Source of the DNA: Oscillospiraceae bacterium | Lineage (GTDB): Bacteria > Bacillota > Clostridia > Oscillospirales > CAG-272 | Direction: 5' to 3' | NCBI GenBank assembly: GCA_015064805.1 | Contig: SVRN01000009.1 | Span: 2,614-66,613, forward strand | DNA: 64,000 bases | The notes under the pieces: generated by a model | The model's database searches: none | Seen by the model: the letters and a program-made list of their open reading frames with translations, nothing else | What the model was told of the DNA's origin: nothing | Made by a program: the position numbers and the translations under genes | Shown here: piece after piece, positions 2,731 to 63,747 of the stretch | Layout: the number at the start of each line of letters is the position of its first letter | How positions within the stretch are numbered: the stretch's first letter is position 1

Positions 2731-3228
2731 AAATTTAAATTTATACAATAGTTTCTACGGACGATCATACTGCGAGCCTTCGGCTCGCGCTGATCTGTAC
2801 CGGTAATTGATGTTCATTCTTTGCCACGCGGCAAAGAACGAACCAAGAAAACGCGCCCGGACGTTCCCTCCGGGGCCTCCCTTTCCGTGCCGCTCTTCAA
2901 AGAGTAGCAGGAGAAAAACATAAAATATTCTAATGCATCTCCCGCCACGCAGATACCACGAGCGGCAGATATGGGGAGCAAGAAGTTTTGCGGGTTTCTT
3001 AAGGGCATTAGGCCCCGAATGAAATTTTGCGTTCTATGGGAAGAATTTTGCTTTGCAAAATTCTTCGAGGTGGGCAAACTGAACTTTAGAAGTATCGTTG
3101 TCACGAAAGCCCACCATATCTTCGCCTATTCTTTGCGGCAAGGCAAAGAATGGGCATCAAATGCGATACAGCGCGGCGCGAAGCTGTACGCGCGTCTGTA
3201 GGAGAAGACGTAGAAAATTTAGTTTTCC
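2731..3228 (+). repeat. HME copy 2 (short variant)
   Basis: Same end, C and D modules (CTACGG..., GTTCATTCTTTGCCACGCGGCAAAGAACGAAC, CCCGGACGTTCCCTCCGGG) and the same right end ...CTGTACGCGCGTCTGTAGGAG. Confidence 0.8.
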
Positions 3229-3532
3229 TTTTCTCTCCCCGCTTTGCCACCACGAGCGGCAGATATGGGGAGCAAAAAGTTGTAACAATTCTATTTTTGT
3301 GGAGCGTAATGGGTAGGGGGACGGAGTAAATCTGCGGAGCAGATTTATGCCGAGCGTAAGCGAGGAGAGGGCCCCATGAGCTCGCGGGAGCTATGGTTTG
3401 GAATAGCGTATTCCTTTCCCCTTACAAAGAAAGGAGTAGTCGCAAGGGCGAACATTTCTATTCCCTTTTTATTAAAGTTTTTGAGGGGTGCAGGGGAACT
3501 TTTTTCAAAAAGTTCCCTTGCGCGTCCTTTTT
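3229..3532. repeat. HME-related tail element T1, directly 3' of gyrB
   Basis: Shares four ordered blocks with 10040-10330: CCACCACGAGCGGCAG, AATTCTA..TTGTGGAGCG, AGTCGCAAGGGCGA.CATTTCTATT, and AAAGTTTTTGA plus the palindrome GGAACTTTTTTCAAAAAGTTCC. Confidence 0.7.
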
Positions 3533-6189
<2,657 letters not shown>

Positions 6190-8815: not shown

Positions 8816-9533
8816 TGGATGGAATTTTAAACTACTTCTTCTACGGACGATCATACTGCGAGCCTTCGGCTCGCGCTGATCTGTACCGGTTTTTAGATGT
8901 TCATTCTTTGCCACGCGGCAAAGAACGAACCAAGAAAACGCGCCCAGGCGTTCCCCCTGGGAACCCCCTTTCCGTGCCGCGCTACAAACAAGAACAAGAG
9001 AGATCACATATTATGTTTTAATGCCATTCTTCAAGTGTAGCCACCACGCGCGGCAGGCAGAGAGAGCAAGAACGTTTTGCTTTCTTGGTAGGGGCTGGCG
9101 CCTCGACAGCCCGTTTTGGTGACAGACGAAGAAACAAAATCGTTTTCGTTTGAACTTTAGTTAAAAATGGGGTGCGTCGCAGTTAGCAAAAACTTTTTGC
9201 TTTTATGCTTGCGTGCGTCTTTCGTGTTGGTGTTTTTCTTTAAAACACCAACGCAAAGGCTGAAGATGTTTGTTTTCGCGCCACTATCAGAAAAATCTGT
9301 GATTTTTCGTGGCGCGTTGCGGGTTTCCAAAGGGCATTAGGCCCTTTGGCGCGTTTCTTCCGCCACTTCTTGCCGCATAGCAAGAAGTGGCACAAAGCCG
9401 CACAGCGCGAAGCCATATTTCGCAAGCGAAATAGCAAGTTTTGCTCGCCCGCTAAACACGGGCGTCATGCAAGCATGAACACAAAACTAGCTGTACGCGC
9501 GTCAATAGGAGCAGTTTCAAAAATTTTCAATAC
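8816..9533 (+). repeat. HME copy 4 (between the dnaN start and oriC), with an 81-bp Y module inside its right arm
   Basis: Near-identical to copy 3 over most of its length. Carries extra sequence at 9410-9490. Confidence 0.85.
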
Positions 9534-10039: not shown

Positions 10040-10330
10040 AATTTGATTGTTAATAACTTCTCCTACGGTTTGGCGCGCCACCACGAGCGGCAGGCGTGGA
10101 AAAACTAAATTTGTTAAAGCAATTCTAATATTGTGGAGCGGATGGGGAGGGGGCCCCAGAAGCTTGCGGCAGCTATTCTGTCGAACAGAGCACGCTCTTC
10201 CTCTTACAGAGTCAGAAGAAGTCGCAAGGGCGAGCATTTCTATTTTTTCTTTGAAAGTTTTTGAAGGGTTGTAGGGAAACTTTTTTCAAAAAGTTTCCCT
10301 AACGCGCTCTCGCGCCCCTCGCGCCCTTCG
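10040..10330. repeat. HME-related tail element T2, directly 3' of dnaA
   Basis: See T1. It ends in TGTAGGGAAACTTTTTTCAAAAAGTTTCCCT, which is GTAG followed by a palindrome. Confidence 0.7.
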
Positions 10331-12024: not shown

Positions 12025-14703
12025 ATGAAAAAATATCGTTATGACGTCACGGGAATGAGCTGTGCCGCCTGCGTCGGACACGTGGAGCGTGCCGCAAATA
12101 AGGTGCTGTTGAAGTTGATTCCCAAAGAAAAGAACGAAAAAAAAGAGGAAAAAAGGTACGACGTTACCGTCAGCCTTCTGACCTCGTCCATGACCATAGA
12201 GATTGAAGATACTATCGTAGAAAAGATAGGAAAGGACCGCATTGACCGCGCCTTGACGGAGGAGATCACCCACGCGGGCTATCACGTCAAGGCCGTCGAG
12301 GAGGGCAAGATCATCGAGCAAAAGGATGCCCGCGAGGCGGCCAAGCAGGACAAGCGCTCGCTCCGCCGCTCCTGGCTGCGCTGGACGCTCTCGGCGCTTT
12401 TGATGCTCATTCTGATGCTGTTTTCCATGGGGCCGATGTTCGGTCTTGTGCTGATTGAGGACAGCGTGCTGAACGCCCTCGTTCAACTGCTTTTGACCTT
12501 GCCCGTGCTCTGGCTCAATCGCCGCTATTTTATCGGCGGCTGGCGGGCGCTCATTCATTTTTCCCCCAACATGGACTCGCTCATTGCCATCGGCTCGGGC
12601 GCGTCGGCGCTGTACGGCGTGTTCGTGTTTGTCTGCATGATCATCGCTCAAATCAAGGGCGACGCGGGTGAAGTTCACGAGCTTGCCCATAATCTGTATT
12701 TTGAGTCGGCGGCCATGATCGTCACCCTCGTTACGTTGGGTAAAAATTTGGAAAAGGGCGCGCGCATCCGTGCCTCTGCCGCCATTCAAAAGCTGGCGAC
12801 CATGCTGCCTGAAACAGCAATAATTGTCCATAACGGAAAAGAGACGGAAATCCCGCTTTCAGCCGTTCGCGTCGGTGATATCGTTCTTTGCCGCGAGGGA
12901 GAGATCATCCCTATCGACGGTGAGATCGTGTTCGGCAAGGCCAGCATCAACGAGTCTGCGCTGACGGGCGAGAGCATTCCCGTCGACAAAAAGGAAGGTA
13001 ACAAGGTGCACGCCGCCTGCACTCTCGTTCAGGGCAGCGTGCGCATCCGCGCCGAGCAGGTCGGCCAGGAAACGGCTCTTTCGCACGTATTGAAGCTGCT
13101 TGAGGACGCGGCCTCCAGCCGCGCACCCGTGGCAAGACTGGCGGATAAGATCAGCCGCTGGTTCGTTCCCGCCGTTCTTCTTATTTCGCTCGCCACCCTC
13201 ATTATATGGATCGTATTGACCAAAAACGTAGGTCAGGCCTTGCAATTTTCCATCAGCGTCCTGGTCATTTCCTGTCCTTGCGCGCTGGGACTTGCCACCC
13301 CAACCGCCATTTTGGTGGCGACGGGACGAGGCGCCGAGATGGGCATTCTATTCAAGAGTGCCGAGGCGCTGGAAAAGCTGCACGCGGTCAATCGCGTCTG
13401 CCTTGACAAGACGGGCACCATGACCGAGGGTCAGCCCGAGGTCGTAGACTGCTTTGTTTATCAAGAAAAAGCCAATCTTCCTGCCATCCCCGGTGTCGAT
13501 GATAAAGAAAAAGAGGATGATATGATAGGCCTTGCGGCCGCAGTCGAGCGCCATTCGACCCATCCGCTCTCGCTGGCCGTCTGCCGCTTTGCACAGAAAA
13601 AAAACGTCGAGGTTCCCGAATCGACCGACTATAGATCCTTCATCGGTGAGGGCGTGAGTGCCAAGGTGAATGGCAAAATTTGTCTTGTCGGTAAGATCAA
13701 TCTGTTACAGCGTTACGGTTTAAAAAACAATCAAACGGCTTGGTTTGACGCCATCGAAGCACACGCGGGCAACAATGGTCAGACCGTCGTTTGCGTGGTA
13801 TATCATAATGAAATTTTAGGTGCGATCGCCATTGCCGACAGCATTCGCCCCGACACGCCTGCGGCAATCAAGCGATTGAGTGAGATGCAGGTTGGTGCGA
13901 TGATGCTGACGGGGGATAACGAGGCCGTGGCGGCCAACGTGGCGGCCCAGACGGGCATCGAGGCGTACCGTGCAGGTCTTTTACCGCAGGACAAAGAAAA
14001 AGCCGTCAGTGAAGAAAAAGAGAAGTTCTGCGTGGCCATGGTGGGTGACGGCATCAACGACGCCCCTGCCCTCGCTCGTGCTGACGTGGGCATTGCCATT
14101 GGCGCGGGCACCGACGTGGCCATCGATTGTGCCGACGTGGTGCTGACCAAAAATTCGCTCCACAGCGTGGCGGACGCCATCGCGCTCAGCCGCCGTTCTA
14201 TGACCTGCATTCGCCAGAATCTGTTCTGGGCGTTGCTGTATAATTCCATTTGTATTCCCGTCGCGGCAGGCGCCTTCAGCGCGCTGGGGCTGACGCTCAA
14301 TCCCATGATTGCGGCAGGTGCGATGAGCCTTTCTTCGGTCTGCGTGGTGGCAAATTCGCTCCGTCTGCGCCGCATCTCTCTGGAAAACGCACCCAAGGTC
14401 AAAGAGAAAAAAGAAAAAAAACAAAAGAAACAAAAGGAACAACAAGAATTACCCGAACCGAAAACGGAAGAACAAAGAATAAAGGAGATTTTTGAAATGG
14501 AAAAGGAAATCGTATTGTCTGTCAAGGGCATGATGTGCCAGCATTGTGTCGCACACGTCAAACGTGCGCTTGAGGCCGTCGAGGGCGTCAGCGCGGTCGA
14601 GGTATCGCTCGAAAACGCCAGCGCCACGGTAAAAGCCGCCGAAACGGTAGAAAAGAGCACCCTGGTCGCCGCCGTCGTCGCGCAGGGATATGAGTGCGAA
14701 TAA
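12025..14703 (+). CDS. copA: copper-translocating P1B-type ATPase with N-terminal and C-terminal HMA domains
   Basis: GMSCAACVGHV (N-terminal HMA), CPC motif SCPCALGLATP, DKTGT, GDGINDAP. After the last TM comes a Lys-rich linker, then a second HMA (GMMCQHCVAHVKRALE) in the same frame. Confidence 0.93.
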   Translation: MKKYRYDVTGMSCAACVGHVERAANKVLLKLIPKEKNEKKEEKRYDVTVSLLTSSMTIEIEDTIVEKIGKDRIDRALTEEITHAGYHVKAVEEGKIIEQKDAREAAKQDKRSLRRSWLRWTLSALLMLILMLFSMGPMFGLVLIEDSVLNALVQLLLTLPVLWLNRRYFIGGWRALIHFSPNMDSLIAIGSGASALYGVFVFVCMIIAQIKGDAGEVHELAHNLYFESAAMIVTLVTLGKNLEKGARIRASAAIQKLATMLPETAIIVHNGKETEIPLSAVRVGDIVLCREGEIIPIDGEIVFGKASINESALTGESIPVDKKEGNKVHAACTLVQGSVRIRAEQVGQETALSHVLKLLEDAASSRAPVARLADKISRWFVPAVLLISLATLIIWIVLTKNVGQALQFSISVLVISCPCALGLATPTAILVATGRGAEMGILFKSAEALEKLHAVNRVCLDKTGTMTEGQPEVVDCFVYQEKANLPAIPGVDDKEKEDDMIGLAAAVERHSTHPLSLAVCRFAQKKNVEVPESTDYRSFIGEGVSAKVNGKICLVGKINLLQRYGLKNNQTAWFDAIEAHAGNNGQTVVCVVYHNEILGAIAIADSIRPDTPAAIKRLSEMQVGAMMLTGDNEAVAANVAAQTGIEAYRAGLLPQDKEKAVSEEKEKFCVAMVGDGINDAPALARADVGIAIGAGTDVAIDCADVVLTKNSLHSVADAIALSRRSMTCIRQNLFWALLYNSICIPVAAGAFSALGLTLNPMIAAGAMSLSSVCVVANSLRLRRISLENAPKVKEKKEKKQKKQKEQQELPEPKTEEQRIKEIFEMEKEIVLSVKGMMCQHCVAHVKRALEAVEGVSAVEVSLENASATVKAAETVEKSTLVAAVVAQGYECE

Positions 14704-14715
14704 TTAAATTGATCA

Positions 14716-14750
14716 ATCGGCAGAGGCATTGTTTCCTCTGCCGATTTGTG
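14716..14750 (+). terminator. hairpin after copA (also the 5' hairpin of the transposase unit)
   Basis: ATCGGCAGAGG, 8-nt loop, CCTCTGCCGAT, then TTTG. Confidence 0.6.
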
Positions 14751-14773
14751 GTATCATAATGTGGGTGATGAAA

Positions 14774-15364
14774 ATGGAAAAATTAAAAAATCGTAAGAAC
14801 ACTCGCTTGAAGGGGGCGGATTATAATAGAAATCAAGCAGTTTTCCTAACAATATGTACGAAAGAAAGACAATGTCTGCTTTCCAAAATTGTAGGGACCG
14901 GCGTCCCCGACGGTCCTCAAATCGAATTAACAGAATACGGACAAACCGCGGATAAATACATCCATCAATTGAATGATTTTTACGACGATCTATCGGTCGA
15001 GAGTTATGTAATCATGCCAAACCATATTCATATTATGCTGTGGATAAAAGACATGGAAAACGGACCGTCGAGGACGCCGGTCACAGACGGACCGTCGAGG
15101 ACGCCGGTCACAGACGGACCGTCGAGGACGCCGATCACAGACGGACCGTCGAGGACGCCGGTCCCTACAGTACAGAATTCTGTTCCGTCGAGGTTCGTAT
15201 CTACGTTCAAAAGATTTTGTAATAAAGAATATGGAAAAAATATTTGGCAATATCGCTCCAATGATCATATCATCCGCAACCGTCATGATTATGAGGAGCA
15301 TTTGCGATACATTTATGAAAACCCCATACGTTGGTACTATGATGAATTATATGTTGAAGAATAG
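14774..15364 (+). CDS. IS200/IS605-type HUH-Y1 transposase, RAYT-like, carrying in-frame REP-derived repeats
   Basis: HUH motif YVIMPNHIHIMLWI and C-terminal Tyr region HDYEEHLRYIYENPIRW. Between them lies GPSRTPVTD x4, encoded by a 27-bp tandem REP hairpin. The start is ambiguous (ATG 14768 or 14774). Confidence 0.8.
   Translation: MEKLKNRKNTRLKGADYNRNQAVFLTICTKERQCLLSKIVGTGVPDGPQIELTEYGQTADKYIHQLNDFYDDLSVESYVIMPNHIHIMLWIKDMENGPSRTPVTDGPSRTPVTDGPSRTPITDGPSRTPVPTVQNSVPSRFVSTFKRFCNKEYGKNIWQYRSNDHIIRNRHDYEEHLRYIYENPIRWYYDELYVEE
14890..14916 (+). repeat. REP-1 hairpin (TGTAGGGACCGGCGTCCCCGACGGTCC) inside the transposase ORF
   Basis: GTAG followed by the GGACCG...CGGTCC palindrome. Confidence 0.85.
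15062..15170 (-). repeat. four tandem 27-bp REP-1 units, in-frame inside the transposase ORF
   Basis: GGACCGTCGAGGACGCCGGTC plus ACAGAC occurs three times. A complete GGACCGTCGAGGACGCCGGTCCCTACA then follows. Confidence 0.9.
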
Positions 15365-15466
15365 GTACCTATCCGTTCCCCAATGTATATGAAAATTGAA
15401 AGATATTCAGTTTCAATAAACAACCCCGACAGACCTTGAAAATCTGTCGGGGCTATTTTTATTTTC

Positions 15467-15491
15467 GGCGAGAGAAGGTCCTCGCCCTACA
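15467..15491 (-). repeat. REP variant (GGCGAGAGAAGGTCCTCGCCCTACA) at the 3' edge of the transposase unit
   Basis: Palindrome GGCGAG...CTCGCC followed by CTAC. Confidence 0.7.
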
Positions 15492-18980: not shown

Positions 18981-19588
18981 GTTTATCTGAATTTCATGCT
19001 ACTTCTCCTCTTGACGCGCACACAGCTTTGCGCGTGCGCTGTGCTGTTTTGATGTTCATTCTTTCTCATCCGAGAAAGAACGAACCAAGAAAGAGGACTT
19101 AAGGGCCTAATGCCCTTAAGAAACCCGCAAGACTTGCCGCTTTTGCTATCTTTTGGTGGTTACCAAAAGGCGTTGTGGCATTTGCAATTTTTGCGCAACG
19201 AAATCCAAAGATTCCGTTGCTACTGCAAGCAGGCTATCGTTTTCCGCTTTATTCCGTGCCGCGCTGCAAAGAGAAAGACGAGAAAAACATAAAAGTTTAT
19301 CCTGCGTCTCTCGCCGCTTTGCCACCACGCGCGGCAGGCGGAGGAAGAAAAAGTTTTTTTCTCGGTAGGGGCTGGCGCCTCGACAGCCCGTTTTGGTGGC
19401 AGGCGGAAAAAAGCAAAATCGTTTTTGCTTGAAATTTTGTTGAACCAGGGGGCGTCGCAGATAGTTAAAGCATTTGCTTTCGCTCGTTGCGTACGTCTTC
19501 CGTGTTTGCAAGTTTCTTTAACTTGCAAATGCAAAAGCTGAAGACGCTTGACTTCGCGAAAAAATGAGCAGAGCGAAGTGTCGCGCCA
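18981..19588 (+). repeat. HME copy 5 (right arm missing)
   Basis: The left arm, the E module with REP-3 (19196-19223), the G block, REP-2 (19365-19389) and the I and J modules are present. The K and C modules and the end are absent on the right. Confidence 0.8.
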
Positions 19589-20715: not shown

Positions 20716-21478
20716 GCTGAAATTGAAGCGACTGCTTCTACGGATGGGCGCGACACAACGCGTCGCGCTTTGCACTTTATGCTACTTCTTGGCCTTTCCC
20801 AAGAAGTAGCCAAGAAGGAAACTTAAGGGCCTAATGCCCTTAAGAAACCCGCAAGATTTGCCGCTTTCGCTATCTTTTGGTGGTTACCAAAAGGCGTTAT
20901 CGCGTTTGCAATCTTTGCGTCAGCGGATCAAAGATCCGCTTCCTATTGCAAGCAGGCTATTACTTCTTACTTCATTTTGTGCCGCGCTTCAAAGAGGACA
21001 GAGGAGAAAAACATATTTAATTCAATTCATCTCTCGCCGTTTTGCCACCACGCGCGGCAGGCGGAGGGAGCGAAATCATTTTTGTTAAAAAGTTAGTTGA
21101 ACCGGAGTGCGTCGCAGATAGCAAAAGTTTTTTCTGTTTTGCTTGCGTGCGACTTCCGTGAGCGTGGCTTTATTTAAGCCGCGCTCGCAAAATCTGAAGA
21201 TGCTCAACTCCGCGCAAACATGAGCGGAGTGACAACGCAGCGACGTTTGCGCGTTGCGGGTATCCAAAGGGCATTAGGCCCTTTGGCGCGCAATGTTTGC
21301 GCCCGCGCTTGCGCGATGTTCGCGTTTAGCGAACAAGCAAACTTGCGATTTCGGCTTGCCGAAATCTGGTTTCTTCCGCCACTTCTTGCCGCGTAGCAAG
21401 AAGTGGCATCAAATCCGCACAGCGCACGCGCAAAGCAGTGTGCGCGTCCGTAGAAGAAGATGCAGAAAAACTAAATTT
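20716..21478 (+). repeat. HME copy 6 (with E and X modules)
   Basis: Full arms are present and the X module lies at about 21286-21375. The right end abuts the maf stop. Confidence 0.85.
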
Positions 21479-24420: not shown

Positions 24421-25116
24421 GTTTGATAGATGGAAAATTGAACTGCTTGCGTTTACGGGCTCGCACAATGCGCTCGCTGTGTGGTGGTAATGCCTATTCT
24501 TTGCCTTGTCGCAAAGAATAGGCGAAGAAAAGACACTTAAGGGCTTAATGCCCTTAAGAAACCCGCAAGACCTGTTTCTTTCGCTATCTTTTGGTGGTTA
24601 CCAAAAGGCGTTGTGGCATCTGCGAGTTTTGCGCAACGAAATCCAAAGATTTCGTTGCTACTGCAAGCAGGCGATCGTTTTCTGCTTTATTCCGTGCCGC
24701 GCTACAAATTGCTTCACGAAAAAAACATAAAAGTTTATTCTGCATCTCTCGCCGCTTTGCCATCACGCGCGGCAGGCGAAGAGAGAAAAATCGTTTTTGT
24801 TGAAAAATCAATTGAACCGGGGTGCGTCGCAGATAGCAAAAAATTTTGCTTTTTTGCTTGCGTGCGACTTTCGTGTTTGCAAGTTTCTTTAACTTGCAAA
24901 CGCAAAAGCTGAAGATGCTCAACTCCGCGCAAATATGAGCGGAGTGACAACGCAGCGACGTTTGCGCGTTGCGGGAATCCAAGGGGTATTAGACCCCTTG
25001 GCGCGTTTTCTTGGTTCGTTCTTTGCCGCGTGGCAAAGAATGAACACCAAAAACCGGTACAGCGCACGCGCAAAGCAGTGTGCGCGTCAAAAGGAGCCGT
25101 TGTAAAAAAACTCAAT
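24421..25116 (+). repeat. HME copy 7 (with E module)
   Basis: Full arms are present. C hairpins lie at 24492-24523 and about 25013-25046. Confidence 0.85.
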
Positions 25117-30759: not shown

Positions 30760-31660
30760 GAAAGTTTTATAGAACTACTTCTTGGGTCTCACCCTGCGCT
30801 TGCAAAGACAGATTGAATTATTTGCAACCGTTTCTTTTGACGCGCGTACAGCTGGTTTTGTGTTCATGCTTGCATGACGCCCGTGTTTGGCGGGCGAGCA
30901 AAACTTGCTATTTCGCTTGCGAAATATGGCTTCGCGCCGCGCGGTTTTTTGTGTACTTTCTTTGTCTCTGAACAAAGAAAGTACGAAAGAAACGCGGGCA
31001 TCTAATTCAGTGCTTATGGGAAAGTTGAATTACCCGCTTCCGAAGAATTTTGCTTGCAAAATTCTTCCCATAGAAAATAAAATTTTTTCTGGGCCTAATG
31101 CCCTTAAGAAACCCGCAAGACTTTTCTCTTTCACTATCTTTTGGTGGTTACCAAAAGGCGTTGTGGCGTCAGCAATTTTTGCGCAACGAAATCCAAAGAT
31201 TTCGTTGCTACTGCAAGCAGGCGATCATTTTCTGCTTTATTCCATGCCGCGCTTCAAAGCAAATAGAGGAGAAAAACATATACGTTTTTCTGCATCTCTC
31301 GCCGTTTTGCCACCACGCGCGGCAGGCGGAGAGAGCGAAATCGTTTTTGTTGAAAAATCAGTTGAACCGGGGTGCGTCGCAGATAGCAAAAAATTTTGCT
31401 TTTTTGCTTGCGTGCGACTTTCGTGTTTGCAAGTTTCTTTAACTTGCAAACGCAAAAGCTGAAGAAGTTTGTCCCCGCGAAAAAATGAGTGAAGCGACAG
31501 CGGAACGACTTTTCGCGCTCGGGGGTTCTAAGGGGTATTAGACCCCTTGGTTCCCTTCTTGGCTACTTCTTGGGGAACGCCAAGAAGTAGCATAAAATGC
31601 TTTCAGCGAGCGCGTTGTGCGAGCTTGTAGAAAGATTTCTAACAAATCTGAAATCATAAA
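30760..31660 (+). repeat. HME copy 8 (longest; duplicated left end, Y module in reverse orientation, E module)
   Basis: The Y module lies at 30852-30932 in reverse complement and the E module at about 31107-31240. The right end lies 26 nt from the cca start. Confidence 0.8.
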
Positions 31661-32993: not shown

Positions 32994-33640
32994 GTTTGAA
33001 ATTTCAAGCAGCTTCTCTTTTTTGACGCTCACACTGTGCCTGCGGCACGCGCTCGCTGTTCCGGTTTTTTATGCCACTTCTTGGCGCGCCCCAAGAAGTG
33101 GCGGAAGAAGCGCGCCAAGGGGTCTAATACCCCTTGGTACCCCCGAGCGCGCAAACGACGCTACGTTTCACTCCGCTCATATTTGCGCGAAAAGATGCAT
33201 CTTCAGCTTTTGCGAGCGCGGCTTAAAGAAAGCCACGCTCACGAAAGTAACACGCAAGCGACATTGCAAAAGCTTTTGCCATCTGCGACGCACCCCAGAC
33301 TAACTAATCTTCAAACAAAAACGATTTCGCTCTCCCTGCCTGCCACGCGTGGTGGCTACACTTGAAGCACCGCACTAAAACATAATATGTAATCTCTCTT
33401 GTTCCTCTTTGTAGCGAGGCAATCGCAGGGAGGCCCCCAAGGGTTCGTCCGGGCGCGCAATGTTTGCGCCCGTGCGAAGCACGATGTTCGCGTTTAGCGA
33501 ACAAGCAAACTTGCGATTTTGGCTTGCCGAAATCTGTTTTCTTGGTTCATTCTTTGCCGCGCGGCAAAGAATGAACATAAAAAACGGTACAGCTCAGCGC
33601 GCACCGCAGGTGCGCAGTATGAGCGTCCGTAGAAAAAAAG
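32994..33640 (-). repeat. HME copy 9 (reverse orientation, with X module)
   Basis: The J, I, H and G blocks read as reverse complement. X lies at about 33452-33542. Confidence 0.85.
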
Positions 33641-44384: not shown

Positions 44385-45205
44385 GTTTGAGCGACTTCTC
44401 CTTTTGACGTTCGCACTGTGCCTGCGGCACGCGCTCGCTGTGCGGCTTTGATGCCACTTCTTGGCGCGCCCCAAGAAGTGGCGGAAGAAGGACGCCAAAG
44501 GGCCTAATGCCCTTTGGAAACCCCGAGCGCGAAAAGTCGTTCCGCTGTCGCTCCACTCATTTTTTCGCAAAAGCAAGCATCTTCAGCTTTTGCGTTGGCG
44601 TTTTTATTGAAAACGCCAACACGGAAGTCGCACGCAAGCATAAAAGCAAAAAGTTTTTGCTATCTGCTACGCCCCCAGCTCAACAAAATTTCAAACAAAA
44701 ACGATTTTGCTTTCCCCGCCTGCCACCAAAACGGGCTGTCGAGGCGCCAGCCCCTACCGAGAAAGAAAAAACTTTTTCTTCCTCCGCCTGCCGCGCGTGG
44801 TGAAAAAGCGGCGAGAGATGTAGAAAAAACATATATGTTTTTCTCCTCTATTCGCTTTGAAGCGCGGCACGGAGTGAAGAGAGGAGAGATCGCCTGCTTG
44901 CAGTAGGAAGCGGATCTTTGATCCGCTGACGCAAAAATTGCAGACGCCACAACGCCTTTTGGTAACCACCAAAAGATAGTGAAAGCGAAAAGTCTTGCGG
45001 GTTTCTTAAGGGCATTAGGCCCTTAAGTCCTCTTTCTTGGTTCGTTCTTTCTCGGATGAGAAAGAATGAACATCTACGCTACACAGATCAGCACGCACCG
45101 CAGGCGCGCAGTATGATCGTCCGTAGAAAAAGTTGTAAAAAGTCTGGCAATTTCTTTTGCGCGCAGCAGTACGCGCGCGGGTAGGAGAAGTTGTTCAAAA
45201 TCCCC
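44385..45205 (-). repeat. HME copy 10 (reverse orientation, with E and REP-2 modules) plus an extra solo end
   Basis: REP-2 lies at 44733-44757 and REP-3 at 44903-44928. A second, isolated end unit lies at about 45147-45205. Confidence 0.85.
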
Positions 45206-47429: not shown

Positions 47430-47652
47430 CGCAAACGCAAAAGCTGAAGATGCCCACCTTCGCGCAAATATGAGCGAAGTGAAACGTAGCGACGTTTGCG
47501 CGTTGCGGGAATCCAAAGGGCATTAGGCCCTTTGGCGCGTTTCTTCCGCCACTTCTTGCCGCGTAGCAAGAAGTGGCATAATAAGCTGAACAGCGAGCGC
47601 GTGCCGCAGGCACAGGGCAAGCGTCAAAAGAAGAAGTGGTGAGGAATTTCAC
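47430..47652 (+). repeat. HME copy 11 (right half only)
   Basis: Only the J module, the K hairpin, the C hairpin and the end are present. Confidence 0.8.
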
Positions 47653-58076: not shown

Positions 58077-58857
58077 GTTTTATCGACTTCTCCTCGGGAC
58101 GCGCGTACAGCTGACGCGCCGCGCTGTGCCAACTTGGATGCCACTTCTTGGTGCGCCCCAAGAAGTGGCGGAAGAAACCAGATTTCGGCAAGCCGAAATC
58201 GCAAGTTTGCTTGTTCGCGGTCGCGAACATCGCGCAAGCGCGGGCGCAAACATTGCGCGCCAAAGGGCCTAATGCCCTTTGGATTCCCGCAACGCGAAAA
58301 GTCGCGGCGCTTCGCTCTGCTCATTTTTTCGCGAAGGGTTGCATCTTCAGCTTTTGCGTTGGCGTTTTAAATAAAAACGCCGACACGGAAGGCGCACGCA
58401 AGCGAAACTGCAAAAGTTTTTGCCATCTGCGACGCACCCGAGTCAAACAAAATTTCAAGCAAAACGATTTTGTTTTCTGCGCCTGCCGCCAAAACGGGCT
58501 GTCGAGGCGCCAGCCCCTACCGAGAAAGAAAAAGCTTTTTCTTCCTCCGACTGCCGCGCGTGGTGGCAAGGCGGCGGGAGATGCAGCAGGGTAAAGATGT
58601 CTTTCTCCCCAGTCTACCTTGTAGCGCGGCACGGAAAGGGGGTGCCCAGGGGGGAACGCCTGGGCGCGTTTCTTGGTTACTTCTTGCCGCGTGGCAAGAA
58701 GTGACACGAAAAGCTGGCACACCGAGCGCGCGAAGCCATATTTCGCAAGCGAAATAGCAAGTTTTGTTCGCCCGCTAAACACGGGCGTCATGCAAGCATG
58801 AACACAAAACTAGCAGGGCGAGGCCGTAGAAGAAGTTGCTGAAAATTCAGCTAAACT
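58077..58857 (-). repeat. HME copy 12 (reverse orientation, with X, REP-2 and Y modules)
   Basis: X lies at about 58170-58262, REP-2 at 58496-58520 and Y at 58733-58813. Confidence 0.85.
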
Positions 58858-58947: not shown

Positions 58948-60447
58948 ATGAACGCTCTGAAAAAACTCACCCTGCTGCTCCTGGTCCTCGCCACGCTGAC
59001 AAGCGCCCTGCTTGGCTGCCAGCGCCCCGACCAGCCCCAGCCCCCCGAAATCGATCTGCCCACCGCCATCGACATCATCGGCGCGGATCGCGTTTCGCTG
59101 ACCCTCGGAGACGAGCTTCAATTGAGAATCGACCAAAGCGAAGAGATATTGTCCATGATCAAGTGGACAGCCACGAGCGACTGCGTCAGCGTCAGCGACA
59201 GCGGCCTCGTCACCACCAACCGCGTCGGCACCGTGCTCGTCACCGCCACACTGGGCGAGCTGAGCGACAAGGTGCTCATCACCGTCGTTGACACCACCAA
59301 CCGCCCCGAGTCCGTCACCCTTACCGCAGAAAAAACCACGCTGATGATCGGCGAGTCGACCGACCTGATCGTGTCCGTCGCCCCTGCAGGCGCGGCATCG
59401 GGCGCCATTTTCAGCGTCACGAGCGGCTCTGATGTGATCACGGTTCAGGACGGCAGAGTCGTCGCCCAAAAGGAGGGCACTGCCACCGTCGTTGCGACCG
59501 TCGCAGGTGTTGCGAGCGAGGAGCTGACCATCACCGTCGCTCCTGCCGTCGACCCCTACGAGGGCATGAGCGCGGACGAGTTTTACGCCAATTACACCGT
59601 CGCGGACAGCTATCTGGACGCCTACTACCGCACCCAGCACGGCTTTATGTCGGGATCGCTGACCGTTCCCGATCAAGCACCCGTGCTCTCCGAGTATCAG
59701 CCCATGCGCGACGGTATGCTCATCCGCAACCGCGCGACGCGCTACGAGGACGACGGCAACACCTACGTCGTGGTGAATGCTTATGGGCAGGAGGTCATGG
59801 AGATCTACCGCGGTGCGGCCTACATCACGCTGGAGGAGGTTGCCGCTTACGTCTTCGCCTTCGGCGACGTGCCCGCCAACTATTCCGCTACCAAAAAGAC
59901 CAAACCGACCCAGAGCGTCTGGGGCATTTACCTGCGCGTCAATCACACCCAGTTCACGGGTGATACCTCGCGCTACCCCTACGAGCCCGAGCTGCCCAAC
60001 ATCAGCGGCTGTGGCGGAGATTTCGTTTATTACGAGATCGACATCGGTACGACGGGCAACGACTGCGATCCCGCCTATCGCCCTGCCCTTTACAACAACG
60101 GCGTGTCCATCATCCGCGGCGCCTCCCGCATCGTCTACGCCCGCTTTGATAAGAACAACAACCACATCACCGAGCCCGACGAAAAGTTCGTCTTCTACAC
60201 CTACAACCACTACAACGATTTTCAGGAATATCTGAACTATTTTGGCGGCTGGGGCGAGATGTTCGGTAATATCACGGGCGGCGGTGTGATCTCGGATAAG
60301 CAAAACTGCAATCCCACGCCCTACGTGCCCGTCTGGCGGGGAGATCTGTCCGAGGCTACGCTTCAATCTCCCACGCGCGAGCAAAACGACTACGTCGAGA
60401 TCGTCTGGTGCCTGCCCGTCGAATGGACGGAGCGCAAGCACGCGTAA
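58948..60447 (+). CDS. lipoprotein with Ig-like (Big_2-like) domains and a C-terminal barnase/RNase Sa-family ribonuclease domain
   Basis: Lipobox ALLGCQ. The C-terminus aligns by eye with barnase: VAAYVFAFGDVPANY / VADYLQTYHKLPDNY, FVYYEIDI / TWREADI (catalytic Glu), RGASRIVYA / RNSDRILYS (Arg), YTYNHYNDF / KTTDHYQTF (catalytic His). Confidence 0.85.
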   Translation: MNALKKLTLLLLVLATLTSALLGCQRPDQPQPPEIDLPTAIDIIGADRVSLTLGDELQLRIDQSEEILSMIKWTATSDCVSVSDSGLVTTNRVGTVLVTATLGELSDKVLITVVDTTNRPESVTLTAEKTTLMIGESTDLIVSVAPAGAASGAIFSVTSGSDVITVQDGRVVAQKEGTATVVATVAGVASEELTITVAPAVDPYEGMSADEFYANYTVADSYLDAYYRTQHGFMSGSLTVPDQAPVLSEYQPMRDGMLIRNRATRYEDDGNTYVVVNAYGQEVMEIYRGAAYITLEEVAAYVFAFGDVPANYSATKKTKPTQSVWGIYLRVNHTQFTGDTSRYPYEPELPNISGCGGDFVYYEIDIGTTGNDCDPAYRPALYNNGVSIIRGASRIVYARFDKNNNHITEPDEKFVFYTYNHYNDFQEYLNYFGGWGEMFGNITGGGVISDKQNCNPTPYVPVWRGDLSEATLQSPTREQNDYVEIVWCLPVEWTERKHA

Positions 60448-60506
60448 CAGAATAGAAAAAACGCCAAGACAAGGGCTCCTTCTCATAAGGAAGTTTGATT
60501 TCTCCT

Positions 60507-60533
60507 TGTAGGGACCGGCGTCCTCGACGGTCC
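60507..60533 (+). repeat. REP-1 hairpin, left boundary of the cargo cassette
   Basis: TGTAGGGACCGGCGTCCTCGACGGTCC. Confidence 0.9.
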
Positions 60534-60605
60534 ATCACAATAATTGTATTGCAGAAAACAAAGATTAACCCCGACAGATTTTTTAATCTGTCGGGGTCAA
60601 ATTTA

Positions 60606-60944
60606 TTAGCCAATATCAAAAAAGCAAGGAACTAAATGATGCGGCTTATACTTATCAATAGTTTCTACAATATGGGCTCGGATTTCTTCTAAAGAACAAT
60701 GTTTCATATTTCTGTCATATATCATTGTTTCAGCCCACATATATTCGGGATTTTCTTTATCACCGTATCCTCCACCACCTAATGAATCCTTTTGCTTGTC
60801 TATCAAGACGTATTCAAACCAGAGGATCTCGTTTACAAAACCTCCACACTCAAAAAGCAATTCTACAAACTCGCTCCAGTTTCTAAATATCAAATCCGAA
60901 CAAACTTTATTTTCTTCTATGTATTTTTTTATTTTGCCGTCCAT
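60606..60944 (-). CDS. hypothetical 112-aa cytoplasmic protein (cargo of a REP-bounded cassette; candidate RNase inhibitor)
   Basis: ATG 60944 sits 7 nt behind GAGGTG. The ORF is visibly AT-rich in a GC-rich window. No family was recognised with confidence. Confidence 0.6.
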   Translation of the reverse strand: MDGKIKKYIEENKVCSDLIFRNWSEFVELLFECGGFVNEILWFEYVLIDKQKDSLGGGGYGDKENPEYMWAETMIYDRNMKHCSLEEIRAHIVETIDKYKPHHLVPCFFDIG

Positions 60945-61257
60945 AATAACACCTCGTTTATTATCGTTAATCGCCAGTTTCGCATCTGTATTACAAATAC
61001 TTCGGGCAAAGCCCATGCCGCTACGGTTGCGCGTCCTAAGGCTCCCTCCGGGAGGGAGCTGGCGCCGCAGGCGACTGAGGGAGAATGCGTTACACGAAGG
61101 TTTTCACAAATCGAAAGTCACGCAGGTTCCTTCCGTCACGCTACGCGTGCCACCGCATCCGCTTGCGGATGGCATCTCGGAGGGAGGCTTTTCGTTAGTC
61201 TCATTATAACACAGATCGGCAGAGAAAACAAGTTCTCTGCCGAAAATTATGTGTCGC

Positions 61258-61284
61258 GGACCGTCGAGGACGCCGGTCCCTACA
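61258..61284 (-). repeat. REP-1 hairpin, right boundary of the cargo cassette (inverted)
   Basis: GGACCGTCGAGGACGCCGGTCCCTACA, the exact reverse complement of 60507-60533. Confidence 0.9.
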
Positions 61285-61332
61285 ATTTGTAAACATCCTT
61301 ATGAGAACGAGCCTAACCGTCCCGCGTTTTCT

Positions 61333-61836
61333 TCATTTTCCCGTCATTCTTTTGAGCACGTCCATAAACTGCTCGCTCGCTTGCAGGCGAAGGACGATCC
61401 TCTCGCCGTTTTCTTCAAACAGAAGATAGACCACGCGCGAGGCGAAAATGTCGGGGCAATAGGAATGGATGCGGTCGGCGTGATAGGCGCGGCGAACGGC
61501 CTTTTCCTCTTTGGCGGCGCACACGTCGTACTTGCAAAGGTCGCTGAGCAAAAGTCGGCAGATGGTCGTTTGCTTCTGGCCGCGTTGCTCGATTACGGCC
61601 AGCTCGTCACGCTCGTCCTTGTCCGATTTTTGGATCGTGTAGGTGTATTTGACCAGCGTGCTGCCAAGCAGCACGACGGTGACCATCATCAGCACGATGC
61701 CGATCGTCTGGAGCACCGCGCTAAAGTCGAAAAAGCGCGCGCAGGTAAAGACGGCAATGCCGCATAGACCAAATAACAGCGCCAGAATTGCGGCGGCGTG
61801 ATTTTTTCTCGTGGGCGTTTCGGAAAAATAGATCAT
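61333..61836 (-). CDS. hypothetical two-TM membrane protein
   Basis: 167 aa, two N-terminal TM helices and a soluble C-domain. Lies downstream of rarA. Confidence 0.6.
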   Translation of the reverse strand: MIYFSETPTRKNHAAAILALLFGLCGIAVFTCARFFDFSAVLQTIGIVLMMVTVVLLGSTLVKYTYTIQKSDKDERDELAVIEQRGQKQTTICRLLLSDLCKYDVCAAKEEKAVRRAYHADRIHSYCPDIFASRVVYLLFEENGERIVLRLQASEQFMDVLKRMTGK

Positions 61837-63174: not shown

Positions 63175-63747
63175 GTTTAGCTGGATTTTCAACAACTTCG
63201 CCTACGGGCGCACACTGCTGCGCGCGTGCGCTGTACCGGCTTTGATGCTACTTCTTGGCGTTTCCCAAGAAGTAGCCAAGAAGGAAACCCGGCCGTTCCC
63301 TCCGGGGCCTCCCTCCATCCCTCCGGCCTTTCATGGCCGTCGGGGCTGTTTGTCTCAGCAAGCTTCCTCCATCTTGGGCGCATAAGCGCACGCCCAAGAT
63401 GGGTTCGCATGGCAAAAGCTTTTGCTTTTCCGTCCTGTTTGAACTTTCGTCTATCACAGGGAGAGAGGCAAAAACTAATGTCTTTTGCTAAAGCGGAGTC
63501 CGAGCGACTCCCGTGAGTGCGACTTTGTTTAAGTCGCGCTCGCAAAAGCTGAAGATGCTCGCTTTTGCGTCGTGCTGCGCGCTTGCGCGCCCGCAAAGAC
63601 GCACTGCGGGAATCCAAAGGGCATTAGGCCCTTTGGCGCGTTTTTTCGTCCTTTTTGTCGCGTGACAAAAAGGACAACACACATACACCGCCGCGCGTTG
63701 TGCGGCGGCAAACAAGAGAAGAAGATGTAGCAATTTTAATTTTTATC
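63175..63747 (+). repeat. HME copy 13 (divergent centre)
   Basis: Both arms and the I, J and K modules are present. The centre is replaced by unrelated hairpins, for example CATCTTGGGCG...CGCCCAAGATG. Confidence 0.75.

Follow-up and report, generated by a model that had tools for sequence, protein, structure and literature searches.

Bacterial repetitive extragenic palindromic (REP) elements and the REP-associated tyrosine transposases (RAYTs) are a textbook case of a domesticated transposase with non-autonomous repeats. Here we describe a RAYT-like gene at positions 14774-15364 (+ strand) of a 64,000-nucleotide stretch of DNA (the window, 64 kb) from an Oscillospiraceae bacterium (assembly GCA_015064805.1, contig SVRN01000009.1), in which an inverted pair of REPs lies within the enzyme's own open reading frame (ORF). 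On the evidence of the alignments (see below) this intragenic REP pair is no single accident but has been conserved, with co-variation, throughout a family of gut Clostridia, its presence at two loops of the protein being ancestral to the clade. Such a pair, written into the codons of the enzyme with arms that are frozen at synonymous sites and change only as matched pairs, would provide a built-in sequence-level read-out of enzyme-repeat co-evolution across the clade, and bears on how enzyme and repeat stay matched in the long term and on what a RAYT actually does. It also extends REP/RAYT biology to the abundant, mostly uncultured Clostridia of the gut.

TnpAREP enzymes of E. coli and other bacteria bind single-stranded DNA at the GTAG tetranucleotide and its hairpin and cut at a CT on either side (PMC3333891; PMC3479197; PMC8266576), with the bulge in the E. 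coli REP being required by TnpAREP (PMC3479197). The E. coli TnpAREP (RayT/YafM, PDB entry 4ER8) is the best profile and structural match to the window protein and has the HUH-Y1 fold in common with it, although the two are only about 22% identical, their hosts are Proteobacteria and gut Clostridia, respectively, and the activity of the protein described here is a predicted one. The E. coli REPtron (PMC3333891; PMC3479197; PMC8266576) resembles the present system in its GTAG-tagged imperfect hairpin with a stem mismatch (G.A here) and in having REPs as singletons, inverted doublets and arrays. In the REPtron, however, the REPs flank the gene, whereas here a REP and an inverted REP (iREP) lie inside the ORF, in frame and at two fixed loops. 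The window does not have the REPtron layout, there being no REP 5′ of the gene and, on the 3′ side, only a GTAG-tagged hairpin of different sequence (15467-15491). Flanking REPs do occur in relatives, with arrays on both sides of the gene at L022 and a 3′ doublet at L114 (L numbers denote DNA loci of relatives or REP carriers, P numbers homologous proteins).

The REPINs (REP doublets forming hairpins) of Pseudomonas are inverted REPs that can be folded into one long hairpin, as can the intragenic pair, and a presumed dependence on a RAYT is common to both (PMC3116915; PMC3337134); extragenic doublets exist here too. REPINs and bacterial interspersed mosaic elements (BIMEs), however, have a short non-coding spacer and form a replicating intergenic population, whereas the spacer here is 145-226 nt of conserved coding sequence, constrained by the catalytic HUH strand that it encodes, and the pair is single-copy. 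REPs and the Rickettsia palindromic elements have been described as translated in frame within genes, usually in permissive regions and sometimes as dimers or clusters (PMC3733652), such that REPs inside genes, like REPs flanking RAYT genes, are already known. Those in-gene elements are sporadic and lie in varied genes, often of DNA repair, unlike the fixed positions in one family reported here, and the text of that survey, as searched, makes no mention of REPs in a transposase gene, of family-wide positions or of co-variation of an inverted pair. Likewise, no report of REPs inside a RAYT gene, of a conserved co-varying intragenic pair or of REP-bounded cargo cassettes was found in the REP/RAYT literature, the coverage of which was incomplete and is no proof of novelty. 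Elements of the IS200/IS605 type have the catalytic fold in common with the window protein and are characterized by hairpin recognition on single-stranded DNA, but here no conserved left- and right-end hairpins travel with the gene, RAYT profiles fit better and there is one copy in the window.

The gene encodes 196 aa and is assigned to the RAYT-like HUH-Y1 nucleases from its best matches in NCBIfam (below the cut-off), in a PDB profile search and in Foldseek, and its codon-position pattern is that of purifying selection. Its probable start is the ATG at 14774 and not the TTG at 14729, the ATG being preceded by a GGTGAT ribosome-binding site and matching the starts of homologues in alignment; the frame is free of stops from 14774 to 15364, with a TTG-extended version running from 14729. 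An earlier note, made from the letters of this DNA, had claimed that the HUH and tyrosine motifs are retained, and both were found, the codons for H84-I85-H86 at 15023-15031 (+), between the two REP arms, and that for the putative catalytic tyrosine Y179 (RYIYENP) at 15308-15310 (+), which pairs with the first tyrosine of DYIYINP in 4ER8. REP arm 1 is a forward copy at 14890-14916 (+; TGTAGGGACCGGCGTCCCCGACGGTCC), composed of TGTAG followed by GGACCG-N10-CGGTCC and translated as VGTGVPDGP (V40-P48), just as the note had placed and read it. REP arm 2, at 15143-15169 (+), is a reverse copy made up of the hairpin and CTACA, encodes G124-T132 and has the same sequence as both extragenic copies in the window. 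It is preceded by three extra 27-nt tandem units (GGACCGTCGAGGACGCCGGTCACAGAC; 15062-15142, +), which are REP derivatives without the CTAC foot and encode (GPSRTPVTD)x3. The four reverse hairpins thus lie at 15062-83, 15089-110, 15116-37 and 15143-64, with CTACA (to 15169) after the last alone, and Tandem Repeats Finder reports the array as 27 nt x 3.9 at 15060-15163 with 97% matches. Four 27-nt units, the last ending in the foot, had been described correctly, with the corrections that the third unit carries a single substitution (CCGATC) and that the fourth encodes GPSRTPVPT. This fourth unit is found in all close homologues, such that the supposed insertion of 36 residues comes to 27 extra residues from three units. 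The inverted arrangement in an open frame, about 145 nt apart, was borne out, with 145 nt separating arm 1 from the first of the tandem units and 226 nt separating it from the unit that bears CTACA.

Conservation of the pair was followed at three depths. The protein search gave 2,895 relatives, 32 of which (61-100% identity, 166-239 aa) form the close alignment; a library-wide search with the minimal protein gave 13,518 at an E value of 1e-3 or lower, from which 47 representatives (35-56% identity) were aligned; and the DNA comparison used 76 metagenomic relatives with 740 flanking windows as controls. In 32/32 close homologues the columns V-G-x-G-x-x-D-G (site 1) and G-x-S-x-T-P-x-P-T (site 2) show no variation, with the minimal form of 169 aa carrying one REP copy at each site. 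Differences in length among these homologues reflect independent tandem expansions at either site, with differing spacers and periods, as in the site-2 repeats GPSRTP +VTD, +DVN, +EI, +DD and +VPTVKDLC and the site-1 periods of 9, 14 and 16 residues. The unit lengths seen run from 24 to 48 nt and every one is a multiple of three, such that the frame is kept. The canonical pair is present in 31/38 relatives at an identity of at least 34% and in 5/38 at 27-33%, as GTAG-tagged hairpins of 18-33 nt with arms 95-180 nt upstream and 30-140 nt downstream of MP[ND]HxH (MPNHIH in the window). An inverted-repeat score of at least 18 was reached by 34/76 genes vs. 5/740 control windows. The stems are lineage-specific and both arms agree inside any one gene; at L125, for example, the compensated stem change GGACAG/CTGTCC is present in both arms. 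Among the 47 representatives the lineage peptides at the two sites are wholly different (VGDGVLDVP/GTSRTPSPT, VGAIHESP/RAIRESPL, VGAGHPAGP/GPAGCPAPT). GTAG points outward in all pairs and the site-1 frame is constantly V-G. The claim that the gene had been colonised by its own REP therefore holds in that the in-frame palindromes are true copies of an extragenic GTAG-tagged REP, but not for this gene in particular, given the pair in 32/32 close and 31/38 wider relatives.

The conserved object is the local REP hairpin and not a long-range duplex. The REP hairpin is imperfect: a G.A mismatch divides its stem into 6 bp and 2 bp, and a tetraloop closes it. Over six homologues with protein identities of 58-85%, variation at third codon positions was seen at 0/16 sites in the arms vs. 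128/146 elsewhere (Fisher p = 4e-13). It could be supposed that an arm-to-arm duplex in mRNA or single-stranded DNA was selected, either for autoregulation by RNase III or by a block to translation, or as an invertible on/off segment containing the HUH codons, and in keeping with this the arms co-vary over the family and, when folded as a single strand, arm 1 and the arm 2 that bears CTACA form a duplex of about 30 bp (z = -7.9 in the window and z = -10.3 in the minimal gene at L004). This is nevertheless improbable. Arm-to-arm mismatches in 33 genes are rarer in stems (3.7%) than in loops (11%) and flanks (13%), paired changes at L128, L129, L147 and L153 keep each arm's own stem and break arm-to-arm complementarity, and just 17/69 arm-to-arm mismatches would be G.U in sense RNA, all of which identify the local hairpin as what is conserved. 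A duplex would also have no need of the GTAG tag on each arm or of identity with free-standing extragenic REPs, and no copy in an inverted state was present among the RAYT loci in the REP scan.

The gene is not a pseudogene and is predicted to encode an intact nuclease of the HUH-Y1 type that belongs to a RAYT-like clade. Its best NCBIfam match is REP_Tyr_transpos (NF047646; 46.7 bits), which was the top model for 6/6 proteins (the window protein and five relatives) at 46.7-78.7 bits, the IS200 model reaching at most 21.5 bits. A profile of the 32 close homologues against the PDB had 4ER8 as its sole match (E 3.6e-8), aligning over the HUH strand, helix alpha-C and the tyrosine helix, and the HUH and the tyrosine of YIxxNP are invariant in the 32 close and 47 distant sequences. 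Structure prediction gave a predicted local distance difference test (pLDDT) score of 61 for the window protein, with residues 95-132 (the repeat) disordered, in agreement with the suggestion that the repeat region may be a surface loop, while the minimal homologue of 169 aa was modelled with a pLDDT of 87.6 and a predicted template modelling score (pTM) of 0.82. The best Foldseek match for both models was again 4ER8 (E 4e-7 and a template modelling (TM) score of 0.58 for the minimal homologue), and the top 30 for the minimal homologue comprised Y1 transposases only. In the models, the arm 1 site is predicted to form the beta-hairpin turn that precedes helix alpha-B and the arm 2 site the loop linking the HUH strand to helix alpha-C, such that, when aligned to 4ER8, the two REP loops lie directly before alpha-B and alpha-C, the helices with which TnpAREP binds its hairpin, a correspondence that may be fortuitous. 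Outside the arms the variability by codon position in the six homologues was 0.51 / 0.30 / 0.88, indicating that the protein is under purifying selection.

These data bear on a group of minor explanations, very improbable even when taken together, in which the peptides VGTGVxDGP and GPSRTPVPT were themselves selected and the likeness to REPs is secondary, or the gene is either a pseudogene in decay or an IS200-type element that is autonomous and has hairpins at its ends. The recurrent proline at site 1 and arginine at site 2 at the hairpin-loop position do hint at selection on the protein, but the peptides differ wholly between lineages while the pairing in DNA persists, and synonymous sites are frozen in the arms alone. 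Decay, which the earlier note had proposed to check with orthologues, is contradicted by an intact ORF, invariant catalytic residues and a purifying codon pattern. The resemblance to IS200 drew on the hairpins that flank the gene, all of which exist (14718-14743, 15424-15452 and 15467-15491, the last with CTACA), but it did not survive comparison between loci, since the 5′ hairpin is a promoter module common to non-transposase cassettes, conservation of the gene does not extend to the 3′ hairpins and the gene is present in one copy in the window. By tblastn, no second Y1-like gene was detected in the 64 kb, as had been claimed, and tblastn against plasmids yielded three distant matches only (29-30% identity; Spirosoma, Leptolinea and Fulvitalea).

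In the window, a CTAC-less REP derivative has recently expanded in tandem to give the three extra 27-nt units, which lie in a disordered loop and vary between strains. At L225, which has the same CopA-RAYT-PBP locus, there are five substitutions over about 960 nt (about 99.5% identical) and exactly 54 nt fewer, equal to two units (4 vs. 2). Whole-unit differences were likewise found between proteins that are 99% identical (P0271 with 4 vs. P0276 with 2; P0003 with 3 vs. P0282 with 2), P0291 has a duplication at site 1 and the number of units varies inside protein clusters drawn at 90% identity. Ten contigs with an identical protein have the CopA/PBP context in common and relatives at 73-81% identity lie among other genes. 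The recent and strain-variable nature of the extra units is what a one-off, recent in-frame colonisation of this gene by its own REP, perhaps compromising the enzyme, would lead one to expect; with a REP at each site in every close and most distant homologues, and both in the minimal form of 169 aa, that account is barely credible.

Outside the gene, the same REP is sparse in the window and widespread in related genomes. With as many as 3 mismatches allowed, 7 occurrences of the 22-nt core GGACCG-N10-CGGTCC were counted in the window vs. 0.00 expected (100 shuffles), comprising one forward copy (14895-14916, after TGTAG), four reverse copies (15062-15164) and two extragenic copies. The 17-mer GGACGCCGGTCCCTACA is found four times, at 14890 (-), 15153, 60507 (-) and 61268, from which it follows that the CTACA foot survives in the last tandem unit only. 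A scan for GTAG hairpins with perfect stems overlooked the REP owing to its G.A mismatch and a relaxed scan recovered it. The two extragenic copies of this REP, a forward one at 60507-60533 (+) and a reverse one (hairpin and CTACA) at 61258-61284 (+), bracket a cassette of 778 bp (see below). The REP census was an exact-match scan with one genome per species, which gave at least 120 stretches and in which copies were then counted at up to 2 mismatches; among the matches listed, the hosts were in all cases metagenome-assembled genomes (MAGs) of Oscillospiraceae, Acutalibacteraceae, Faecousia, Ruminococcus or Eubacteriales. Among these same matches, 14/170 copies lay inside RAYT genes and 156/170 outside, and 124 of 170 (73%) fell outside stop-free frames of at least 150 codons, such frames making up 85% of bases. 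The copies occurred singly, in direct arrays and as doublets that were either inward or GTAG-outward, the two REPs of an outward doublet having their starts 48 to 151 nt apart. The idea that spacers of extragenic doublets are remnants of the HUH-coding segment was ruled out, the spacers being unrelated AT-rich sequence. Lineage-specific REPs are also extragenic at L161 (three copies), L178 and L155, and the arms are seen, in comparisons between loci, to track the REP family elsewhere in the same genomes.

The RAYT gene at L022 has arrays of this CTAC-less 27-nt unit on its upstream and its downstream side, indicating that tandem expansion is a property of the REP and not of the protein. The internal units, both at 15062-15142 and in the intergenic arrays of L022, lack three bases of the GTAG/CTAC foot, which the outermost unit alone keeps. 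At L049 (1790-1965, -) the RAYT gene is cut off right after site 1 at a REP that has both GTAG and CTAC (GTAGGGACCGGCGTCCCCGACGGTCCCTAC), followed by unrelated sequence, which marks a rearrangement breakpoint at the intragenic REP. A second REP type of the same species, GTAGGGGCGATCATTGATCGCCC ... GGCGACCAATGGTCGCCCCTAC, is seen at L205 (1106-1178) and also at L210 and L214. The arm-to-arm differences of this second type at L205 match those of the intragenic RAYT pair at L133, a lead that doublets and intragenic pairs may be related units. A number of contigs end at or near a REP (e.g., L019, L020 and L029, within about 100 nt for several), and L006 and L100 end inside RAYT genes. The REP thus appears to fragment MAG assemblies and to leave truncated RAYT proteins in databases, which would explain a practical nuisance, namely contigs that break at or near REPs or inside RAYT genes.

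The reading preferred here, to which a probability of roughly 60% is assigned, is that of an embedded enzyme-substrate pair, in which the intragenic REPs would serve in cis as a protected substrate, or master copy, through which enzyme and REP remain together in inheritance and evolution; expression would probably be affected as a by-product. Arm 1, in the beta-hairpin turn before alpha-B, and the inverted arm 2, in the loop before alpha-C, would form a BIME/REPIN-like REP/iREP pair whose 'spacer' encodes the HUH motif. By analogy with E. coli TnpAREP, the enzyme would bind GTAG plus hairpin in single-stranded DNA, its substrates being the sense strand of arm 1 and the template strand of arm 2. 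Placing the sites within codons would shield the 'master' REP pair from deletion, such that enzyme and substrate would be inherited and evolve together. The two GC-rich hairpins probably also restrict the gene's own expression.

Several observations weigh against the embedded pair having this role. The link between enzyme and hairpins is drawn from sequence and analogy. The HMM searches proposed in the earlier note did return the RAYT model as best, but all six proteins fall under the 80-bit equivalog cut-off of NF047646 and neither the window protein nor the minimal homologues matched any Pfam family, including Y1_Tnp (PF01797), even at E up to 10. Some members of the family have no pair at all (L114, P0155, P0178 and P0259), which indicates that it is not essential for the fold. 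The reading frame of CTAC varies by lineage (..PT vs. ..PL), pointing to replacement events. The majority of distant relatives have no extragenic copy of their own REP in their flanks (up to 10 kb per side, often far less). The frozen synonymous sites could, moreover, stem from concerted evolution, in which an active population of REPs overwrites the arms again and again, and not from selection for a function in cis.

A rival reading is passive, recurrent colonisation, in which REPs repeatedly insert into or overwrite two permissive loops, for instance through a preference of the enzyme for DNA close to its own gene or for REPs already present, while selection tolerates them and active REPs homogenise the arms. 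The lineage difference in the frame of the CTAC foot (PT vs. PL) and the absence of the pair from some members agree with it, as do the duplications and foreign insertions for which both sites are hot spots (P0033, P0103, P0118, P0120; L022), the L049 RAYT gene cut exactly at a REP and the precedent of REPs within other genes (PMC3733652). Passive colonisation is a serious alternative, though on balance an unlikely one. It sits poorly with the use of the identical two loops by 31/38 relatives down to 34% identity, with the strong depletion of REPs from open frames otherwise and with a GTAG that is constantly outward and a site-1 frame that is constantly V-G; the arms also persist where there is no extragenic copy in the examined flanks (at most 10 kb per side).

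The two extragenic REPs of the window delimit a cassette (60507-61284, 778 bp) that shares elements with the RAYT gene. In minus-strand order it consists of a REP, 15 nt, a copy of the hairpin hpA with TGTGTTATAAT, other repeats, a leader, an ORF, a copy of the hairpin hpB and a REP, the hpA and TGTGTTATAAT being the promoter module that also precedes the RAYT gene. The leader is conserved (GGCTTTGCCC..TTTGTAATACAgATGCGAAA) and the cargo is an AT-rich ORF of 112 aa (60606-60944) without a Pfam match. This arrangement recurs around unrelated cargo ORFs (92-167 aa), with both REPs at L005, L021 and L074; at L031 and L112 the locus begins within the cassette and the leader-cargo-hpB-REP part is visible, and at L001, L004 and L162 leader, cargo and hpB come directly after the RAYT stop codon. 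The leader, located at 60975-61013 (-) in the window, at L001 10512, L004 10638 and L162 400 and at 11 other loci, precedes every variable cargo ORF. It contains a small GGGC-TTT-GCCC hairpin, with xTAGGGGTAT before most copies, and another hairpin (GCnTTTGTAATACAAAnGC), the stem of which shows compensated changes; at L001 and L004 the RAYT stop codon TAG falls in the motif just upstream of the leader. A search of the whole window, including the leader, against Rfam returned nothing at gathering score. Ten cassette cargo proteins compared with Pfam gave one clear match, SF0329 (PF25753).

At one chromosomal site (window 60447-61333), contigs with a 100%-identical flank protein (61333-61836) carry at least 3 different cargos, including one of 167 aa at L205 (compared over 1054-1965) and a HAD-like start at L209 (compared over 4504-4800); L210 and L214 were compared over the stretch after the flank gene. 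The swapped cargos sit between the conserved promoter/leader and terminator/REP modules, with the left end at L205 being of a different REP type. Many contigs end inside the cassette at this site. The comparison of loci suggests that REPs bound expression cassettes which can be exchanged and which have control modules in common with the RAYT gene. More tentatively, and doubtful as it stands, a RAYT clade of gut Clostridia with a master REP pair in its own frame and with small cassettes, delimited by the same REPs and by a common hairpin-promoter module, a GTAG-tagged leader and a terminator hairpin, whose cargo is exchanged between strains might constitute an integron-like system driven by a single-strand HUH nuclease in place of an integrase-type tyrosine recombinase, which if true would be a new route of gene-cassette exchange.

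The flanks of the RAYT gene are made up of the same modules. Homology among relatives starts at hpA, runs through a TGnTATAAT element and the ORF and stops at the stop codon. The unit that is conserved with the gene has its 5′ limit in the hairpin hpA (CGGCAGAGG-cattgttt-CCTCTGCCG; 14718-14743, +); this hairpin is kept upstream of homologues in unrelated genomic contexts (L004, L022, L050, L061 and L006) and has 2 copies in the window, the second at 61217-61242. A predicted promoter, read from the alignment of homologous 5′ regions, would lie at 14729-14757 (+) and consist of TTGTTT in the hpA loop, 17 nt and TGgTATCAT, the counterpart of which in homologues is TGnTATAAT; a consensus promoter scan did not list this module, the -35 of which agrees at 3/6 positions only. 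Downstream, hpB with a T-run at 15424-15452 (+) is terminator-like and belongs to the hairpin family that closes the cargo cassettes, and it is not conserved 3′ of the RAYT stop codon at L022, L061 and L125. Just 3′ of hpB, a GTAG-tagged hairpin of other sequence with a CTACA foot (TGTAGGGCGAGGACCTTCTCTCGCC; 15467-15491, -) takes the place of the right-end REP in cassettes. A further GTAG-tagged hairpin of the window lies at 10271-10299 (TGTAGGGAAACTTTTTTCAAAAAGTTTCCC).

The RAYT gene had been seen as the obvious candidate enzyme for the repeats that saturate the window, a connection that has fallen away, as its REP has two other copies in the 64 kb and its hairpin is absent from the saturating repeats; nothing ties those repeats to this enzyme. 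They are long mosaics made of chains of different hairpins, e.g., ACTTCTTGG..CCAAGAAGT, CCAAAGGGC..GCCCTTTGG and GCCACCACGCGCGGCAGG, at about 13 loci (783-1280, 2807-3283, 5617-6180, 8896-9527, 19032-19576, 20776-21472, 24470-25112, 31020-31603, 33068-33320, 44448-45203, 47431-47588, 58135-58716 and 63242-63686). The upstream neighbour of the RAYT gene (12025-14703) encodes a P-type ATPase, an identical product of 892 aa having E1-E2_ATPase, Hydrolase and HMA domains on record. Within this ATPase an A-rich stretch encoding a Lys/Glu-rich linker (14400-14450) is followed by a C-terminal CxxC metal-binding segment.

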